Shown: one piece after another, positions 4,193 to 11,322 of the stretch
How positions within the stretch are numbered: position 1 is the first letter of the stretch
How the letters are laid out: every line of letters begins with the position of its first letter
Virus record (IMG/VR): IMGVR_UViG_2534681675_000022
Origin: a virus
Lineage: Duplodnaviria; Heunggongvirae; Uroviricota; Caudoviricetes
Reading direction: 5' to 3' (one strand)
Length of the DNA: 11,637 bases
The notes under the pieces: generated by a model
Database searches by the model: none
The model's input: the letters and a program-made list of their open reading frames with translations, nothing else
Told to the model about the DNA's origin: nothing
Translations under genes and position numbers: made by a program

Positions 4193-4492
4193 ATGAAACT
4201 TAAATATTCTGGCTTAACTGCCAGTGGCAACACTCACCCTAAATTTACGCGCGGTGATATTTACCGCGACCAGTACGGCGGCACGGTAATGATTAAGGGC
4301 GTGGCGGGACGGTGCGTAACTTACCGCCATGAAGGTTACGAATATGATTGCGTGATGCCTGTTTATCAGTTCCGGCGTGATTTTTCTCTGGTACAGACCG
4401 CGCCGCATAACGTGCCCACCAGCAACGCCAGGGCACGGGCAAACATCCAGAAGCTGAAAACCATGATTAACGGATTCAGGGGTAAAAAATGA
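4193..4492 (+). CDS. Hypothetical protein (99 aa), overlaps start of replication gene
   Basis: ATG 4193 with GGAGA upstream; its stop overlaps the ATG of the primase ORF (ATGA coupling). Confidence 0.55.
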   Translation: MKLKYSGLTASGNTHPKFTRGDIYRDQYGGTVMIKGVAGRCVTYRHEGYEYDCVMPVYQFRRDFSLVQTAPHNVPTSNARARANIQKLKTMINGFRGKK

Positions 4493-6237
4493 AACTGGCA
4501 CCGAACGTAAAAAAACAGCCACGCGGAATAAAACACAAAGACACAGAGGTAATTATCTTTGCGGGTAGTGATGCCTGGTCGCACGCGAAACAATGGCAGG
4601 AGCAGGATGGCCCCGCATCCGGCGATAATGTGCCGCCTGTGTGGCTTGGGCCAAAGCAGCTTGCCGAACTTGATGCGCTGAAAATTGTTCCGGATGGGAA
4701 AAAGCGCGTAAGGCTGTACCAGGCCGGAGAACTGGATTTAGTGGAGACCAAAAAGATTGGTCAGAAGCTGGCGGCGGCAGATATTCAGGACGCAAATTTT
4801 TACCACGAAGGAATGCACGTCCAGAAGTGTGAAAACTGGCGGCGCTATCTGAATGCTGAGCGTGAAAATATTGCCGCAGGGCTTACCATGCCGGAGCAGA
4901 AAAATACGCAACTGGCACAAATGGCAGACAGTGAGCGCGCACAGATGCTTGCTGGTCGATTTGATGGCGTTTGTGTGCATCCGGAAAGTGAAATCGTTCA
5001 CGTATGGCGCGGCGGGGTATGGTGTCCGGTCAGCACAATGGAACTTAGCCGCGAAATGGTGGCGATCTATTCAGAGCACAGGGCCACTTTCAGCAAACGC
5101 GTGATCAATAACGCCGTTGAAGCGTTAAAAGTTATTGCCGAACCAATGGGGGAGCCGTCCGGCGATTTGTTGCCGTTCGCCAATGGTGCGCTTGACCTGA
5201 AAACGGGGGAATTTTCCCCGTACACGCCGGAGAACTGGATCACCACGCACAACGGCATTGAGTACACGCCACCAGCACCTGGGGAGAACATCCGCGATAA
5301 CGCGCCAAACTTTCATAAATGGCTTGAGCACGCAGCCGGAAAAGACCCGCGCAAGATGATGCGTATATGTGCCGCGCTGTACATGATTATGGCGAACCGG
5401 TACGACTGGCAGATGTTTATTGAGGCCACCGGAGACGGCGGGAGCGGTAAAAGTACATTCACACACATAGCCAGCCTTCTGGCAGGGAAACAGAACACGG
5501 TAAGCGCTGAAATGACATCGCTTGATGATGCTGGTGGACGTGCGCAGGTTGTCGGGAGTCGTCTTATCGTCCTGGCAGACCAGCCGAAATATACAGGCGA
5601 AGGAACGGGCATCAAGAAAATCACGGGCGGCGACCCCGTGGAAATAAACCCGAAATATGAAAAGCGTTTCACGGCGGTAATCAGGGCGGTGGTGCTGGCG
5701 ACCAATAATAACCCGATGATATTCACCGAACGGGCCGGAGGTGTGGCACGTCGTCGCGTGATTTTCCGTTTCGACAATATTGTTAGTGAGGCCGAAAAAG
5801 ACAGGGAACTACCGGAAAAAATTGCGGCTGAAATCCCCGTTATTATCCGCCGCTTGCTGGCGAACTTTACCGACCCTGAAAAGGCGAGGGCTTTACTACT
5901 GGAACAGCGTGACGGTGATGAAGCACTGGCAATAAAGCAACAGACGGATCCGGTTATTGAGTTTTGCCAGTTCCTGAATTTTCTGGAGGAAGCGCGCGGC
6001 CTGATGATGGGTGGCGGTGGTGATTCAGTGAAGTACACGACCAGGAACAGCCTTTACCGCGTCTATCTGGCGTTTATGGCATACGCAGGCAGGAGCAAAC
6101 CGCTAAACGTGGCTGAGTTCAGCAAGGCCATGAAGCCAGCGGCGAAAGTTTACGGGCATGAATATATTACGCGAAAAGTTAAGGGAGTAACGCAGACCAA
6201 CGCAATTACAACAGACGATTGCGACGCGTTTTTATAA
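4489..6237 (+). CDS. Replication initiator: phage/plasmid primase-associated D5_N-type domain plus P-loop (SF3-helicase-like) NTPase
   Basis: 582-aa ORF. Walker A GDGGSGKST and a Walker B-like hydrophobic stretch RLIVLADQ; central region typical of the P4-family primase C-terminal/D5_N architecture; located directly upstream of an iteron array. Confidence 0.85.
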   Translation: MKLAPNVKKQPRGIKHKDTEVIIFAGSDAWSHAKQWQEQDGPASGDNVPPVWLGPKQLAELDALKIVPDGKKRVRLYQAGELDLVETKKIGQKLAAADIQDANFYHEGMHVQKCENWRRYLNAERENIAAGLTMPEQKNTQLAQMADSERAQMLAGRFDGVCVHPESEIVHVWRGGVWCPVSTMELSREMVAIYSEHRATFSKRVINNAVEALKVIAEPMGEPSGDLLPFANGALDLKTGEFSPYTPENWITTHNGIEYTPPAPGENIRDNAPNFHKWLEHAAGKDPRKMMRICAALYMIMANRYDWQMFIEATGDGGSGKSTFTHIASLLAGKQNTVSAEMTSLDDAGGRAQVVGSRLIVLADQPKYTGEGTGIKKITGGDPVEINPKYEKRFTAVIRAVVLATNNNPMIFTERAGGVARRRVIFRFDNIVSEAEKDRELPEKIAAEIPVIIRRLLANFTDPEKARALLLEQRDGDEALAIKQQTDPVIEFCQFLNFLEEARGLMMGGGGDSVKYTTRNSLYRVYLAFMAYAGRSKPLNVAEFSKAMKPAAKVYGHEYITRKVKGVTQTNAITTDDCDAFL

Positions 6238-6520: not shown

Positions 6521-6835
6521 ATGCGCATACATCAAAATCACTTAACAAACATGCCAGCCGAAAACATGAATCAGGGGCGACAAATGACCAAAATTCGCAG
6601 AGACAGAACAGAGCCAAAATATAAAGCGTTAGACATGACTGAGCACACCTTAAAGGTGGCAATCAGAACGATAGACCGCCACACGCGGGAAGGATACGCG
6701 AAGGAACATCCCGAACTGATAAGCGCATTCATGACCACAGCGGCGGCAAACTTTGCCACGCTGACAGAACGGGAGATTGCCGAAGCGGAACAGGTAACAA
6801 CCATCAACGTTAAAACCGGAGAGGTGGAATCATGA
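6521..6835 (+). CDS. Hypothetical protein (104 aa)
   Basis: ATG 6521 preceded by GAGGGGGTG; its stop overlaps the SSB start. Confidence 0.5.
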   Translation: MRIHQNHLTNMPAENMNQGRQMTKIRRDRTEPKYKALDMTEHTLKVAIRTIDRHTREGYAKEHPELISAFMTTAAANFATLTEREIAEAEQVTTINVKTGEVES

Positions 6836-7242
6836 CAGCACAGATAGCCGCTTACGGGCGGCTGGTGGACGACCCGCAGGTAAAACAGACCAGCAAGGGC
6901 ACACCGATGACGCTGGCGCGTATGGCGGTCCCCCTTCCGTGCAGCCAGGCAGATGACGGAACGGCTACGTTATGGCTATCGGTGATGGCATTTGGTAAGC
7001 AGGCCGACTTCCTGGCTAAACATCAAAAAGGCGACGTTGCCAGCATATCTGGCGTGATGCAGATAAGCCAGTGGACCGGACTGAACGGGGAAACGCGGCA
7101 GGGTTATCAGGTTATTGCAGACAGCGTAATCAGTGCCCGTGCGGCACGTCCTGGCGGGAACAGACGCAAAACCACAGGCGCACAGGGTAATCAGCCACCA
7201 GCGGGAGACGATGACCCCTACGGTGATGATATTCCGTTCTGA
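6832..7242 (+). CDS. ssb: Single-stranded DNA-binding protein (OB fold) with acidic C-terminal tail
   Basis: 136-aa ORF. N-terminal GRLVDDPQVKQTSKG and the W...FGK...KG...G spacing fit the SSB OB fold; Gly/Gln/Pro-rich linker; C-terminal DDDPYGDDIPF is the canonical SSB tail motif. Confidence 0.75.
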   Translation: MTAQIAAYGRLVDDPQVKQTSKGTPMTLARMAVPLPCSQADDGTATLWLSVMAFGKQADFLAKHQKGDVASISGVMQISQWTGLNGETRQGYQVIADSVISARAARPGGNRRKTTGAQGNQPPAGDDDPYGDDIPF

Positions 7243-7479: not shown

Positions 7480-7686
7480 ATGGCAGAAGAGAAAAAAGGC
7501 GGTGTTTCGGTGTACATAAGCCCCGAAATCGTGGAGGTGCTCAAGCAGCGCCACAAAAAAAACTATGAGGCTGGCGTAGCGGCTGGACTGGATCCGCTGA
7601 TGACGCCGGAGCCGTCGATAGGTTCACTTGTGCGCTCTTATTTACTTGCGGCGCTTGGGATGCATAAAAATTATGGGGGTGAATAA
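7480..7686 (+). CDS. Hypothetical protein (68 aa), first gene of capsid operon
   Basis: ATG 7480 with AGAGGA upstream; its stop overlaps the ATG of the major capsid gene. Confidence 0.55.
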   Translation: MAEEKKGGVSVYISPEIVEVLKQRHKKNYEAGVAAGLDPLMTPEPSIGSLVRSYLLAALGMHKNYGGE

Positions 7687-8741
7687 TGGCAGGCAAAGCA
7701 ACGGCACTTAACACTAACCAGCTTTTTGCGTACCTGAATCGCGGGGATATTGCGGAATTTAAATTCAGTCCGCTGTTTACCACGCTGTTTTTCCCGAACG
7801 TGGCGACATTCAGCACCCAAAACATCATGCTGGATACCCTGGACATTGAAGAAGTCACCATGTCGGCGTTTTGTTCGCCTATGGTTGGCAGCCAGGTACA
7901 GCGCGATAAAGGATACGAAACCAGCACGATTAAACCTGGCTACATGAAGCCAAAGCACGAAATCGATCCAACAAAAACCATCATGCGCATGGCTGGAGAA
8001 GATCCGGCACAGCTTAACGACCCTACCTACCGACGTATGCGCCTGATTACTGGCAACATGCGCCGCCAGGTAAACGCCATTAAAGCGCGCGTGGAATGGC
8101 TGGCGGTGAATGCGATAACGACCGGAAAAAACATTATTGAGGGCGAAGGCATAGAACGCTATGAAATAGACTGGAAAATACCGGAAAACTGCATCATAGA
8201 GCAGGCCAAGGGTAAAAAATGGTCCGAGCAGGATAAAGAGATGCACGACCCAATCTATGACATCGAGCTTTATGCAGATCAGGCTGGTTGCCCCGCAAAC
8301 GTCATGATTATGGGCGCTGAGGTATGGCGCACGTTACGCAGCTTTAAAAAATTCCGTGAGCTGTACGATCTTTCCCGTGGTTCAGAATCCGCCGCAGAAC
8401 TGGCCTGTAAAAACCTGGGCGAAGTGGTGAGCTTTAAAGGCTATCTGGGCGATATTGCCCTTATCGTCTATTCCGGCAAATACGCTGACAGCGACGGCAC
8501 CGAAAAATATTTCCTTGAGCCTGATTTACTGGTCCTGGGTAACACCAACAATAAAGGCCTGGTGGCCTATGGTGCGATTATGGATCAGGAAGCGGTCAGA
8601 ACGGGCGCAACGCAAAACATGTACTACCCGAAAAACTGGATTGAGGACGGCGATCCGGCGATTGAGTACGTGCAGACACACAGCGCACCGCAGCCGGTAC
8701 CGGCAGATATTCGCAAATTTGTTACCGTCAAAATTGGTTAA
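7686..8741 (+). CDS. Major capsid protein, phage lambda gpE family
   Basis: 351-aa ORF colinear over its whole length with lambda gpE (341 aa) as I recall it: EFKFSPLF vs KFKFDPLF; PGYMKPKHEI vs PGYVKPKHEV; EDPAQLNDPTYRRMR vs EDPQNLADPAYRRRR; SRGSESAAELACKNLGEVVSFKGYLGDIALIVYSGKY vs RRGSNSELETAVKDLGKAVSYKGMYGDVAIVVYSGQY; YPKNWIEDGDPAIEY vs YPKNWVTTGDPAREF. Confidence 0.9.
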   Translation: MAGKATALNTNQLFAYLNRGDIAEFKFSPLFTTLFFPNVATFSTQNIMLDTLDIEEVTMSAFCSPMVGSQVQRDKGYETSTIKPGYMKPKHEIDPTKTIMRMAGEDPAQLNDPTYRRMRLITGNMRRQVNAIKARVEWLAVNAITTGKNIIEGEGIERYEIDWKIPENCIIEQAKGKKWSEQDKEMHDPIYDIELYADQAGCPANVMIMGAEVWRTLRSFKKFRELYDLSRGSESAAELACKNLGEVVSFKGYLGDIALIVYSGKYADSDGTEKYFLEPDLLVLGNTNNKGLVAYGAIMDQEAVRTGATQNMYYPKNWIEDGDPAIEYVQTHSAPQPVPADIRKFVTVKIG

Positions 8742-8752
8742 CGGGGGATTCT

Positions 8753-9088
8753 ATGGACACTCCATACATTGAGTTATTCGCAGGCAGTCAGCAGGTCGCC
8801 ACGACGCTGGTACATTTTGCCGCTGATGCTGGCGTTATTCAGGAATTTACCCCGCTGATGCTGGCGGACAATGGCGAGTTTAAGCCGTGGGATGGTCAGG
8901 AATCTGGCAAGGCTGTTTATCTGACTTCGTACCCCGTGGACACGTCGACGCAGAAATCAGCACAGTGTTACAAGACGGGGATATTTAATATCGCTGCCGT
9001 AAACTGGCCTGAGAGCGCCGACACTGACGCGAAAAAATGCGCTGCCTTTGCGGGGGCTGGCGTATCCGTTCAGCCGCTGGCCCGATAA
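8753..9088 (+). CDS. Head decoration protein, phage lambda gpD family
   Basis: 111-aa ORF. TPLMLADNGEFKPWDG, YKTGIF and WPESADTDAKKCAAFAGAGVSV match lambda gpD ([46 protein letters not shown]). GGGGGA Shine-Dalgarno upstream. Confidence 0.85.
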   Translation: MDTPYIELFAGSQQVATTLVHFAADAGVIQEFTPLMLADNGEFKPWDGQESGKAVYLTSYPVDTSTQKSAQCYKTGIFNIAAVNWPESADTDAKKCAAFAGAGVSVQPLAR

Positions 9089-9097
9089 GCAGGGGGA

Positions 9098-9514
9098 ATG
9101 ATGGCAACGAATGAAAGCATCATGACGCTACCGCTGGCGAGTAAATTTAAAGCCGAAGCGCGGGCAATGGCTGACAGAGGGTTATCAACCTACGAGGGCA
9201 TATATCAACTTAACAAACTGGAAGAGCAGGACAAGCCGCGCGCTGATTCGATTATGGCGCTTGATGAATCTGGCGACTATCAGCCGCTGTTACGTGCAAT
9301 GGCAAACGTGCCTTGTATCGATGTTGGTACGGCTAAAAGCATCCTTAGCATGACCATAGAGCAGGAACGTCCGAAGGTTGCGCCGGAGCTTACCGCAGCC
9401 TTTGAAAACTTTATGGACACGCACAGCCCGCAAGCCGTATCAGCTGGCATGGCATACGATGGCAGAAACCCGGGCGATGACGGCGACATCGATCGCATAC
9501 TGAAAACCATCTGA
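9098..9514 (+). CDS. Hypothetical protein (138 aa) downstream of the capsid genes
   Basis: ATG 9098 or 9101 after AGGGGG; last gene before the terminator and cos. Sits where lambda has FI, but I could not support sequence similarity to FI. Confidence 0.55.
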   Translation: MMATNESIMTLPLASKFKAEARAMADRGLSTYEGIYQLNKLEEQDKPRADSIMALDESGDYQPLLRAMANVPCIDVGTAKSILSMTIEQERPKVAPELTAAFENFMDTHSPQAVSAGMAYDGRNPGDDGDIDRILKTI

Positions 9515-9516
9515 GA

Positions 9517-9542
9517 CAGGCCGGAGAAATCCGGCTTTTTTT
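9517..9542 (+). terminator. Intrinsic terminator after the capsid operon, abutting cos
   Basis: GCCGGA gaaa TCCGGC followed by eight T residues; near-duplicate of the 7251-7273 terminator. Confidence 0.75.
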
Positions 9543-9610
9543 ACGGGTCCTTTCCGGCATATGGACCCGTTACGGGGCGGCGACCTCGCGCGTTTTCGCT
9601 ATTTATGAGC
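9543..9610 (+). other. Lambda-type cos site A: cosQ-side flank, cosN (12-nt cohesive end GGGCGGCGACCT at 9575-9586) and first ~24 bp of the cosB side
   Basis: ACGGGTCCTTTCCGG...GTTACG GGGCGGCGACCT CGCGCGTTTTCGCTATTTATGA is almost base-for-base the lambda right-end/left-end junction as I recall it; similarity ends after TTTATGA. Confidence 0.75.
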
Positions 9611-9719
9611 CTTTTCAGGGGGGTGGTGGTGGTTTTGTTGTTTGCTCTATCTTTATGAATGAAAAGGGAAAGATGCAAACAATACACCAACCTGAAGCAG
9701 TAATTAAGTTGGTGTATTA

Positions 9720-10262
9720 ATGAAATCGCACCTGATGAACAAAAAAAACATGGCGAAAAGCTGCCGTGTAAGTGCGACAGCGTTCGACAAGTGGGGAGTG
9801 ACTCCCGTTGAACGTAAAGGCCGTGAGGCGTTTTATGATGTTGCCAGCGTGATAGACAATAGGGTTAACAATGCAATTAGCCAGCTTACAAACGACAAAG
9901 GCGATATTGATGATGATGAACTCTTACGAGTCAGGATCAGATTACTGACAGCACAGGCGGAGGCGCAGGAACTTAAAAACGAGCGCGATCGCGGTGACGT
10001 GATTGATACTGAGTTTTGCCTGTACGCGCTTTCAAAGCTGGCGAGTCAGATTTCATCAATCATGGACAGCCTCCCGCTTACTATGCAAAGGAGCTTCCCA
10101 CAGATTACCCCCGCCATGCTGGACAGGCTTAAAAGGGAAGTGGTTAAAGCCTGTAATGCCAGTGCCAGAGTTGCCGACAACCTCCCACAGATACTGGCTG
10201 ATTACTTGAAAGAAACAACCGGAAACGTACCGGAAAAGTTGCTACAGAAGAAAGGCAAGTAA
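9720..10262 (+). CDS. Terminase small subunit, lambda Nu1 family
   Basis: 180-aa ORF. C-terminal two-thirds align with lambda Nu1: LLTAQAEAQELKNERD vs LTRAQADAQELKNARD; FCLYALSKLASQISSIMDSLPLTMQRSFPQ vs FCTFVLSRIAGEIASILDGLPLSVQRRFPE; LKREVVKACN vs LKRDIIKAMN. N-terminal wHTH region is recognisable (NKK..., YDVASVI vs YDSAAVI) but divergent in the recognition-helix region. Start could be 9720, 9735 or 9750. Confidence 0.85.
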   Translation: MKSHLMNKKNMAKSCRVSATAFDKWGVTPVERKGREAFYDVASVIDNRVNNAISQLTNDKGDIDDDELLRVRIRLLTAQAEAQELKNERDRGDVIDTEFCLYALSKLASQISSIMDSLPLTMQRSFPQITPAMLDRLKREVVKACNASARVADNLPQILADYLKETTGNVPEKLLQKKGK

Positions 10263-10288
10263 CAGAAGCGCAATTATTGAACAAAAAT

Positions 10289-10490
10289 GAGAAAGGATCT
10301 GATAATGGCATTTTCTGGCTAAAATGCCTCGTGTCAGATCCTTTCTTTTTTTAATATTTTCATTGTTAAACAGTCTGTTACAGAGAAGAAGAACGGATCT
10401 GACTTTTGCCGGAAAATTTTCATAAACAGATAAAAACCGCGAGGTCGCCGCCCCGTAACGGGCCATAATTCCAGGAAGGACCCGACGACA
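10289..10490 (-). other. Lambda-type cos site B in inverted orientation: cosQ-side flank, cosN (10442-10453) and a full cosB-like region with three R-like repeats
   Basis: Minus strand reads CGGGTCCTTCCTGGAATTATGGCCCGTTACG GGGCGGCGACCT CGCGGTTTTTATCTGTTTATGAAAATTTTCCGG ...CCGTTCTTCTTC..., tracking lambda cos for more than 100 bp. Core GGATCTGA/TCAGATCC at 10294-10301, 10333-10340 and 10395-10402 sits where lambda has CGTTTCC/GGAAACG, in the same orientation pattern. The inner 13-bp inverted repeat (10289-10301 / 10333-10345) plus T-run also looks like a terminator for terS. Confidence 0.75.
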
Positions 10491-10517
10491 CCAGGCTATC
10501 AGAACGATGGGGGCACA

Positions 10518-10799
10518 ATGACAGAAGCCGAACTACTGCGATTAATCCGCCGCGTTACCGGAATCAGCCAGCAGCATGACGAACAGGGCACGCAACCGGA
10601 CAGCGTGACCGCTGAAAATTATGCGCGTGTTGTTGCTGAGGTGATGCGCCGTGATGGTATTGAGCTTAACGGCGTGGATATGCGCAACATACGAACCAGA
10701 GTCCTTGAGTTGCTGGCATACCGTCGCCGCGTGGAGATGTATCGGGAGAAGGAGAAAATCACGTACCACTGGAAGAAGCCGGAACGGTTGCGGCGGTAA
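10518..10799 (+). CDS. Hypothetical protein (93 aa) just outside cos B
   Basis: ATG 10518 after GATGGGGG; Arg-rich helical-looking protein; no recognisable family. Confidence 0.4.
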   Translation: MTEAELLRLIRRVTGISQQHDEQGTQPDSVTAENYARVVAEVMRRDGIELNGVDMRNIRTRVLELLAYRRRVEMYREKEKITYHWKKPERLRR

Positions 10800-10882
10800 C
10801 TCACTGAGATTAAAGCAAAGCTCAAAATTGCGCTGGCTGAATGATCATTATGATTACTTATGTTTACGCAGATGATTAAGGC
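10789..10882. repeat. Direct repeat, copy 1 (~90 bp), overlapping the 3' end of the 93-aa ORF
   Basis: GGCGGTAACT...TTAAAGCAAAGC[TG]CAAAATTGCGCTGGCTGAAT[GA]ATCATTATGATTAC...GCAGATGATTAAGG; copy 1 has an extra TTATGTT relative to copy 2. Confidence 0.6.
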
Positions 10883-10922
10883 CTAAACCGTTGATTATTC
10901 CACAATCCCCCATTGGGGGAAG

Positions 10923-11005
10923 CTGGCGGTAACTGGTTGAACTTAAAGCAAAGCGCAAAATTGCGCTGGCTGAATAATCATTATGATTACGCAGATGATT
11001 AAGGA
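10923..11005. repeat. Direct repeat, copy 2 (~83 bp)
   Basis: Same unit as 10789-10882. Contains the AGCGCAA aa TTGCGCT hairpin and the ATCATTATGAT palindrome. Confidence 0.6.
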
Positions 11006-11022: not shown

Positions 11023-11322
11023 TTCGCCTGTGGTTGATGGGGGAGTTGCAGATCTGCAACTCGACCATGAAATTACGGAAACTACCCGTAGTTTGGGTAG
11101 TAAGAGCAACACCCAGATTTTGGGGCTTACTCGTGATACCCAAATTTGGGGTATCGGCGGCAACCATAACGACTTTCGTTACGGTTGATGCTTTTACCCC
11201 ATTGAGGGAAAGGTATTACGATAATCATAACACCTACCGAACAGGTAAAGCCCACCAGCCTGATTAACTGTTAACCGGAAAAAAATTCCGGTAGGGTTCC
11301 CGATATGGGAATCCCCATATCG
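11023..11322. other. Palindrome-dense non-coding region near the right end of the island (candidate att arm / regulatory or structured RNA region)
   Basis: Consecutive perfect or near-perfect palindromes: AGGCGGAAATTCGCCT; GTTGCAGATCTGCAAC (16 bp); AAACTACCCGTAGTTT; GATACCCAAATTTGGGGTATC; TTAACTGTTAA; CCGGAAAAAAATTCCGG; CGATATGGGAATCCCCATATCG. No convincing ORF. Confidence 0.4.

Follow-up and report, generated by a model that had tools for sequence, protein, structure and literature searches.

The locus described here raises the question of which packaging site is read by a phage satellite that encodes a complete small terminase subunit (TerS) of its own between two cos sites. It lies in the IMG/VR virus record IMGVR_UViG_2534681675_000022, a stretch of 11,637 nucleotides (11.6 kb, referred to as the window) that holds one satellite-type island. 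The gene in question, terS, is preceded by a complete cos site on the same strand (cos A) and followed by a second, inverted one (cos B), whose three R sites carry the core CAGATCC. An earlier note on this DNA had taken the diverged TerS helix and CAGATCC for a co-evolved pair private to the satellite; cos A, complete and directly upstream of terS, was not weighed in it. Our data point in another direction: TerS probably uses the upstream cos A, and cos B is probably an exchangeable mimic of a helper cos, both held in a cassette of the order cos A-terS-inverted cos B within a phage-inducible chromosomal island (PICI). This reading draws on anatomy, homologies, covariation, and distribution.

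Conservation was counted over the relatives found in a TerS-anchored search that was not selected on CAGATCC. The search gave 80 loci with TerS 82-100% identical, and after pooling and deduplication, 71 unique cassettes were obtained (70 in the counts for cos A). Cos A and terS are laid out as follows:

9545-9551, plus strand: cosQ of cos A, GGGTCCT, an exact lambda match at the lambda distance from cosN, present in 69 of 70 related cassettes
9575-9586, plus strand: cosN of cos A, the 12-nt cohesive-end sequence GGGCGGCGACCT, exact match
9622-9634, plus strand: R3-position element of cos A, GGTGGTGGTGGTT, at +48 to +60 from cosN
9681-9692, minus strand: R2-position element of cos A, GGTTGGTGTATT, at +107 to +118 from cosN
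9707-9718, plus strand: R1-position element of cos A, AGTTGGTGTATT, 1 bp short of the terS ATG
9720-10262, plus strand: terS, Nu1-family small terminase, 180 aa

The order cosQ-cosN-cosB-terS is the canonical order of phages, and the 145 bp from cosN of cos A to the terS ATG are kept in essentially all relatives. What a phage would have next, terL for the large terminase subunit (TerL), does not follow terS, and none is present anywhere in the island according to the gene annotation of the window, in keeping with a satellite. At bp 48-60, the R3-position element coincides with the interval by which R3 of N15 is defined (PMC9026076), and its sequence TGGTGGTGGT recurs in 66 of the 70 cassettes and, furthermore, in satellites from Kosakonia and Superficieibacter. 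In a repeat search, it paired with the R2-position element as an imperfect inverted repeat. The core of the latter, GGTTGGTGT, starts at +110, next to the +109 of the N15/Monarch-type R2 in the sister island L004, and ACACCAAC is found at this position in all 70 cassettes. The R2 and R1 elements form an 11-nt perfect inverted repeat; when up to one mismatch is allowed, GGTTGGTGTATT recurs in the window only as the R1 element. All three elements follow the orientation pattern of lambda and Monarch, and the cos A signature was present in 65 of the 70 cassettes.

The gene behind cos A encodes a TerS of the Nu1 family, as the earlier note had recognized from the open reading frame (ORF). The protein scored 83 bits with Pfam Phage_Nu1 (PF07471; curated cut-off 30 bits; E 2.3e-23, residues 33-148). 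Its residues 1-174 matched PHROG 57, "terminase small subunit" (E 3e-53), and in BLASTP the protein showed 35% identity to Nu1 of lambda (E 1e-34). The BLASTP alignment sets RVSATAFDKW opposite GASIRTIQNW of lambda, in agreement with the note's observation that the helix VSATAFDKW has diverged from ASIRTIQNW. The DNA-binding domain (DBD, residues 1-47) is 57% identical to that of N15 gp1, compared to 36% for lambda and 30% for the TerS of phages with CAGATCC sites, and it aligns to the N15 domain without gaps, with the common motif AFDKWGV.PVE..GRE. Judged by these alignments, the "divergent" helix is N15-class and part of a putative winged-helix DBD. A phmmer search of TerS alone against the PDB gave no hit; a profile search matched 1j9i and 6hn7, which is not independent, since lambda Nu1 was in the profile.

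The pairing of such helices with their R sites was followed in 36 N15-class loci from species-representative genomes, 34 of which are phages with terL behind terS. SVQAFDKW was paired with (G/A)GTTGTTGT (core GGTTGTTGT) in 31 of 32 loci. Lack of terL was confined to two loci, the satellites from Kosakonia and Superficieibacter, which have the layout major capsid protein-decoration-cos-terS and combine GVTAFDKW with GGTGGTGGT and AATACACCCAC. The window combines VSATAFDKW with GGTGGTGGTGGTT and GGTTGGTGT and does not show the strict N15/Monarch pairing of ISVQAFDKW with GGTTGTTGT at bp 48-60. Between phages and satellites of this class, a Gln-to-Thr change in the helix accompanies a T-to-G shift in the R core. 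By this comparison, the pair in the window is N15/Monarch-related but a distinct specificity variant.

The C-terminal half is not of the lambda/N15 type (41% identity). The earlier note had called it strongly lambda-like, which was an overstatement: it can be aligned to lambda, with identities of 39% (residues 96-166) and 26% (residues 140-166). Its nearest phage counterpart is the TerS of the PhiR5_1/L024 type (55-56%; 56% to PhiR5_1 over residues 96-166), L024 being a phage with a CAGATCC cos. A second type of satellite TerS has a different DBD and a C-terminal half that is 75% identical to that of the window, again over residues 96-166. In the Superficieibacter satellite, a lambda/N15-like C-terminus is combined with the DBD and cos A type of the window. 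This mosaicism fits a DBD-plus-cos unit that is joined to a C-terminus suited to the TerL of the local helper. A tail of 12-15 aa at residues ~166-180 (10214-10262; TTGNVPEKLLQKKGK) is common to the other satellite TerS type (TTGNVPEKLRQQKGERQQRNY) and absent from the TerS of lambda, N15, PhiR5_1, and CAGATCC phages that were compared; this tail, at the end that faces TerL, may be peculiar to satellites.

Downstream of terS, on the opposite strand, lies cos B:

10289-10304, minus strand: R1 of cos B, TATCAGATCCTTTCTC, 14/16 identical to the phage consensus
10331-10346, minus strand: R2 of cos B, AGAAAGGATCTGACAC, opposite in orientation to R1 and R3, 13/16 identical to the phage consensus
10388-10403, minus strand: R3 of cos B, GTCAGATCCGTTCTTC, core at bp 53-59 in the lambda R3 register, 15/16 identical to the phage consensus
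10442-10453, minus strand: cosN of cos B, GGGCGGCGACCT, exact match
10477-10483, minus strand: cosQ of cos B, GGGTCCT, exact match, with the flank TCGTCGGGTCCTTCCTGGAATTATGGCCCGTTACG identical to published EcCICFT073 cos.2
9544-9619 (left arm) and 10409-10484 (right arm): inverted repeat of both cos cores, 76 nt, 79% complementary, flanking terS

The sequence TCAGATCC occurs exactly three times in the window (10295-10302, minus; 10334-10341, plus; 10395-10402, minus), with a chance expectation of 0.19, and three matches were reached in none of 200 shuffles. In an alignment to lambda itself, the three repeats fall into the register of R1, R2, and R3 with the flanks of lambda preserved (CCGTTCTTCTTC following R3 and the AAAGAAAGG...CCTTTCT arms at R2 and R1), which bears out the earlier description of three R elements with lambda flanks, the lambda orientation pattern, and a core changed to CAGATCC. 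At all three sites C-GTT-TCC has become C-AGA-TCC, corresponding to bp 54-56 of R3, and bp 56 of R3 is a known determinant of lambda/21 specificity (PMC4669245). With cosQ, a 12-nt cosN, and R3(+), R2(-), and R1(+) in the lambda register, cos B has the makeup of a lambda-type cos. Compared with the consensus of CAGATCC phages, the consensus of the satellites is identical at 61 of 67 positions (91%) within cosQ, cosN, R3, R2, and R1 and at 93 of the 130 remaining positions (71.5%; Fisher p 0.0017). This fits selection to stay readable by a phage-type TerS, and by this measure, cos B looks functionally constrained. The R1/R2 hairpin was also considered as a terminator of terS, but it was not called by a consensus scan, and such a role would leave R3, cosN, and cosQ unexplained; terminator- and promoter-like sites in 9400-10900 were no commoner than in shuffles.

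Where, then, does CAGATCC come from? A search of IMG/VR for the R2-R1 inverted pair (pattern AAAGGATCTGA-N20-50-TCAGATCCTTT) gave 59 viral contigs or loci. About half of these are true lambdoid phages or prophages with the order cosN-R3-R2-R1-terS-terL and a TerL ~75% identical to lambda gpA. The TerS of these phages has the helix VDVRTITAW in 29 of 29 loci, within one common DBD (MNVNKKKLADIFGVDVRTITAWQSQG, containing GVDVRTITAWQSQG) that is joined to C-terminal halves of two different types. Hence, the core is native to phages with another helix, contrary to the idea of a satellite-only pair. In all classes sampled, each type of TerS helix goes with its own type of R core in the canonical upstream cos:

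ASIRTIQNW (lambda type): upstream R core CGTTTCC, 1 of 1 loci
VDPRTIE[RG]W and VDIRTIDRW (21-like): upstream R core CATGTC, 10 of 10 loci
VDVRTITAW: upstream R core CAGATCC, 29 of 29 loci

A related pairing, CDVRTITGW with (C/G)AGATCC, is found in SerU-LTIIb on a different cosN. Only three lambda-like packaging specificities, those of lambda, 21, and N15, are documented (PMC4669245), and the CAGATCC class seems to be another that exists in nature. Two candidates were rejected: the EDL933 prophage match (H50/L008), considered as a CAGATCC helper, has the CGTTTCC cores of ordinary lambda and an almost identical Nu1, and in PhiR5_1, whose DNA matched cos B best among the phages of the collection, the R cores are 21-like (CATGTC).

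The relatives of the window show that TerS and the downstream cos are uncoupled. The earlier note had proposed to align related islands and look for covariation of helix and R cores; the helix region, SCRVSATAFDKW (VSATAFDKW), is invariant in all 80 loci, and the downstream cores vary or are absent. Among the 71 cassettes, 21 have no downstream cos, with the gene for a conserved 93-aa protein following directly, 15 have a cos with CAGATCC cores, 14 a cos with 21-like CATGTCG/GTCGTTTC cores, and 10 another cos type; 4 retain a cosQ-cosN stump without R sites, 1 is disrupted by an insertion sequence (IS), and 6 are too short to call. At least four different complete phage-like cosB types occupy the position of cos B, and the R-like repeats are not conserved in related islands, an outcome that the note itself had named as fatal to its claim. 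In ATCC 25922, TerS is that of the window except for the last residue, and the downstream cores are 21-like. Only the ~130-bp R1-R3 segment differs between the two, inside conserved flanks, which suggests that the cosB portion was exchanged as a small module. Furthermore, nine loci combine a satellite TerS that has a 21-like helix (VDPRTIERW, with CATGTCGG sites upstream) with a convergent CAGATCC cos.

Several relatives document rearrangements at the cassette. The cores of cos A and cos B are homogenized in some islands, among them L070. In L085, R1 and R2 with CAGATCC are intact downstream of terS, and unrelated sequence, similar to the end of a transposase gene, stands in place of the R3/cosN side, which leaves a disrupted cos B. 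Two IMG/VR satellites with the 21-like TerS, L011 (8608-9635) and L019 (8553-9581), are collinear except for the cassette, which is inverted from cosQ to cosQ (1.03 kb, 91% identity) with breakpoints inside the ~83-bp inverted cos cores; by the position of these breakpoints, the inversion is the product of recombination in the cos-core arms. L011, L017, and L019 have four cosQ motifs each, and L017 additionally shows inversion of a larger nested segment. The 71 cassettes of the window type showed no inversion. In a further sub-family, on phage-sized IMG/VR contigs of 22-60 kb (L113-L123), TerS begins MKLHLMNKK, cosN is a variant (GGGCGGAAGGCG), and a downstream cos is absent; its members may belong to the helper-embedded PICIs reported in PMC10111431.

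A cassette with two cos sites is known from EcCICFT073, and the slot between them can hold a different protein. In the sister island L004 it is occupied by a 146-aa RppA, which matched RppC (PDB 6hlk, E 2.4e-31), and the sequence published as "CFT073 cos.1" consists of cos A of L004 and the start of this gene. In EcCICFT073, the two published sites, cos1 and cos2, correspond in position to cos A and cos B. Cos1 is Rpp dependent and required for transfer (PMC6092414, PMC6739421); cos2 works for plasmid transfer but is not the site essential for island transfer (PMC6092414). Cos B of L004 is a perfect Monarch/N15-type tripartite cosB, with GGTTGTTGT at +50, 109 (minus strand), and +187, like that of an E. 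albertii prophage. From these arrangements, a general rule seems to emerge, in which the upstream cos is served by the specificity protein of the island and the downstream, inverted cos is of phage type and falls into several specificity classes.

Judged by its layout, the module of the window is a TerS-based variant of this Rpp/cos1/cos2 module in a known PICI family. Island family and cassette architecture are the same as in EcCICFT073 (Fillol-Salom et al. 2018, 2019; PMC6092414, PMC6739421). Cos1 agrees with cos A in position and in the cosQ-cosN-I2 sequence, with the specificity gene directly 3', cos2 agrees with cos B in position and has an identical cosQ flank, and both islands combine a specificity protein of the winged-helix type, putative for the TerS of the window, with a non-helper cosB. 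However, Rpp has 144-153 aa and must heterodimerize with the helper TerS, whereas the TerS of the window is full length (180 aa) with a Nu1-like C-terminal half and, being a full-length TerS, should not need the helper TerS. The earlier note's proposal that a satellite TerS may be an alternative to Rpp is supported by RppA in the same slot of sister islands; its proposal of a private specificity is plausible as well, but by way of the upstream cos and an N15/Monarch-derived helix, not of CAGATCC or a lambda-derived one. No Rpp (an RppA/C homolog of ~145-153 aa without the C-terminal TerL-binding region of TerS) was found among the proteins of the window. The 138-aa ORF upstream of cos A was rejected as a candidate, since it matches phrog_1999 and the C-terminal scaffold part of the head-protease family. 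The cos sites differ too, Rpp-type cos having (ACC)n on the top strand at the R3 position and cos A of the window (GGT)n. Such a (GGT)n/(ACC)n tract stands at the R3 position of both island-specific cos types, on opposite strands: as GGTGGTGGTGG at +48 to +58 in the TerS-type cos A (9622-9634) and as ACCACCACC at +55 to +63 in the Rpp-type cos A, or CFT073 cos1 (L004 3130-3141). In the literature searched, TerS-type Gram-negative PICIs are mentioned only in the remark that some exist and failed to transfer (PMC6092414), and Murialdo and Feiss discuss Rpp-type cos only (PMC9026076).

Likeness to phage systems is divided between the two cos sites. Cos A and the DBD of TerS resemble the TerS-cosB pair of N15/Monarch, including R3 at bp 48-60 (Feiss et al. 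2015; PMC4669245), and Monarch-type sites such as cos B of L004 and L153 share the succession of R3, an inverted R2 at ~+110, and R1. N15 differs in its helix (SVQ instead of SAT), in its R core (GGTTGTTGT instead of GGTTGGTGT and GGTGGTGGT), in having terL after terS, and in the C-terminal half. Cos B, in turn, has the layout, the register, and the flanks of lambda cosB (R3-I1-R2-R1), and TerS belongs to the same Pfam family as Nu1; unlike lambda, the cores of cos B are CAGATCC, which belongs to a phage class with VDVRTITAW. Element by element, cos B resembles a helper-type cos, as in satellites that copy the cos of their helper (P4 with P2, SaPIbov5, and the helper-embedded PICI 11capE, in which 258 bp at the cos position are 90% identical to the helper [PMC10111431]). 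In contrast to those, the mimic is inverted here, stands beside a second cos probably served by the TerS of the island, and is swapped among several phage specificity classes within the family. The TerS of staphylococcal pathogenicity islands (SaPIs) is alike in concept, since satellite TerS and helper TerL package satellite DNA (PMC6092414), but it is of the pac type, works by headful packaging, and belongs to an unrelated family, whereas the system of the window is of the cos and Nu1 type; a separate Ppi-like inhibitor was not identified in the window.

In our model, the TerS of the island would bind the R-like elements of cos A by its N15-derived winged helix (SATAFDKW, compared to SVQAFDKW in N15). 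Its target would be the GGTGGTGG/GGTTGGTGT elements of cos A (GGTGGTGGTGGTT and GGTTGGTGT, compared to GGTTGTTGT in N15) and not CAGATCC. The C-terminal half would recruit the large terminase of the helper, and the resulting terminase would nick cosN of cos A and package the island rightwards, independently of the specificity of the helper TerS, as a TerS-based counterpart of Rpp/cos1. Cos B would be a copy of a cos from lambdoid phages in which a VDVRTITAW TerS reads CAGATCC, and most likely it would let a helper of this class package the island with its own holo-terminase in the opposite direction. As sister islands have 21-type, Monarch/N15-type, other, or no cosB at this place, it would be an exchangeable and dispensable module. 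In lambda, cosQ works directionally. Inverted cos sites should for this reason not terminate each other's packaging, which direct sites 870 bp apart would.

Several points weigh against this model. The constant co-occurrence of cos A and terS is partly linkage, because the two are physically adjacent, and the covariation of helix and R core in the N15 class may be a single evolutionary event, with the three satellite lineages maybe forming one clade. The phage collections held no TerS with a C-terminus more than 56% identical to that of the satellite. An N15-specific terminase packages DNA of lambda specificity at about half efficiency (PMC4669245), and it is possible that the N15-class TerS of the satellite also acts on cos B with its lambda architecture. 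Deletion of cos2 in EcCICFT073 raised transfer by lambda, so that a second cos can be a cost, and islands of the IHE3034 type did not transfer in the one published attempt (PMC6092414). Finally, a CAGATCC satellite and a CAGATCC phage contig were found together in none of ~13 satellite genomes (by IMG genome identifiers, with incomplete sampling), and one genome held a mismatched pair; this is a weak negative that gives no evidence of cos B matching a resident helper.

Among other explanations, the one that survives best, unlikely as we find it, takes cos B for a non-functional recombination scar left by exchange of terS and cos with lambdoid phages, the inverted cores just promoting rearrangement. 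The downstream module is indeed highly mosaic, with cosQ-cosN stumps, an IS-disrupted copy, and complete losses, and cassettes were inverted by way of the cos cores or, as in L070, had their cores homogenized. A scar does not explain why cosQ, cosN, and three R sites are intact and better kept than the spacers, why at least four complete phage-like cosB types are found at the same position, and why the homologous cos2 of EcCICFT073 is experimentally functional (PMC6092414). Next comes a decoy, which we also regard as improbable. Here, cos B would attract helper TerS and TerL and lower the yield of the helper, with cos A and cos B facing each other ~870 bp apart and the helper terminase being titrated or driven to package island DNA. 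Such a device would be consistent with the retention of all helper-type recognition elements under apparent constraint, with the convergent geometry that is fixed in the sub-family of the window, and with the known interference of PICIs with helper packaging (PMC6739421); however, about a third of the related islands have no cos B, so that it is not essential to the island, and the gain in transfer by lambda upon deletion of cos2 in EcCICFT073 (PMC6092414) looks like relief from a cost and not clearly like interference. Very unlikely is, lastly, a TerS that swapped its specificity to CAGATCC and, with helper TerL, packages from a satellite-private cos B only: the identical three-base change in three R cores with lambda flanks kept, a helix different from lambda's, and the permissiveness of N15-class terminase for lambda-type cosB (PMC4669245) would agree with it, but CAGATCC is native to VDVRTITAW phages, the downstream cos of this satellite TerS can be 21-like, of another type, or missing, a different satellite TerS also occurs with CAGATCC, and cos B is convergent with terS, the canonical upstream place being held by cos A with its N15-like R elements.

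The cassette with cos A as the site of TerS and cos B as the helper mimic is set in an island of the following content:

1-1218: tyrosine integrase
1593-1781: AlpA
4489-6237: D5-type primase
6832-7242: SSB
7686-8741: lambda gpE-like major capsid protein (Pfam Phage_cap_E, E 5e-51)
8753-9088: gpD-like decoration protein
9098-9514: 138-aa protein, scaffold part of the head-protease family (phrog_1999; phrog_53, profile positions 496-567 of 583)
10518-10799: conserved 93-aa protein

This gene order, the lack of tail and lysis genes, and a size of ~10-15 kb are those of Gram-negative PICIs of the EcCI type, which have an att site of their own (PMC6092414, PMC10111431). By these features, the island is a Gram-negative PICI of the EcCIIHE3034 type, inserted in tqsA. 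The segment 9500-10520 has a 100%-identical copy in E. coli RM10466, in an island that splits tqsA, and the cassette is common to EcCICFT073 and EcCIIHE3034; 487 of 5,426 complete E. coli genomes (~9%) carry it at 80% coverage or more. The primer IHE3034-adjustchlor-1m (PMC6092414 supplement), used for insertion of the cat marker into EcCIIHE3034, matches L006 3760-3830, that is, R1/R2 of a 21-type downstream cos, and judging from this match, the marked, non-transferring island probably had its second cos disrupted or deleted. The genes at 7686-9514 form a set of capsid shell, decoration, and scaffold without portal, protease, or terL, which might redirect capsid size. According to the literature, capsid genes are common in PICIs, yet dispensable for transfer. 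A PADLOC scan of the small accessory ORFs gave nothing credible. A third cosN-like 12-mer with one mismatch (GGGCGGCGACCC) at 5625-5636 is part of the primase gene, where it encodes TGGDP (in KKITGGDPVE); it has no cosQ in its vicinity and is probably coincidental; it is kept in related islands as coding sequence. Just 3' of the gene for the 93-aa protein, at 10792-11004, are a 66-nt direct repeat (89% identity, spacing 133) and a 24-nt repeat (96%), followed by a 19-nt palindrome-like inverted repeat at 11034-11071 and ACCCA(G/A)AT(T)TTGGGG motifs at ~11100-11160, near the right end of the island; these may be att sites, arm-type sites, or an origin.

On a wider view, which we hold tentatively, enterobacterial PICIs might share a modular, invertible two-cos cassette, in which a private cos is matched either to Rpp or to a full TerS with co-shifted N15-derived helix and R sites, and a second, inverted, and interchangeable cos is copied from several lambdoid classes, so that different helpers could package the island directly. 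PICIs carry virulence and defense genes between enterobacteria, and which phages mobilize them is set by packaging recognition of the island DNA. If our model holds, TerS-type islands would be independent of the helper TerS, and their helper range would be given by TerL compatibility and the phage-type second cos. The model is a testable answer to the stated open question of why dual cos sites exist (PMC6739421). The pairing of CAGATCC with VDVRTITAW would add a natural lambda-like specificity beyond lambda, 21, and N15, and natural pairs of covarying helices and R sites would help to decipher the code by which Nu1-type terminases recognize their sites and to design delivery vectors, cosmids or PICIs, of a chosen packaging specificity.

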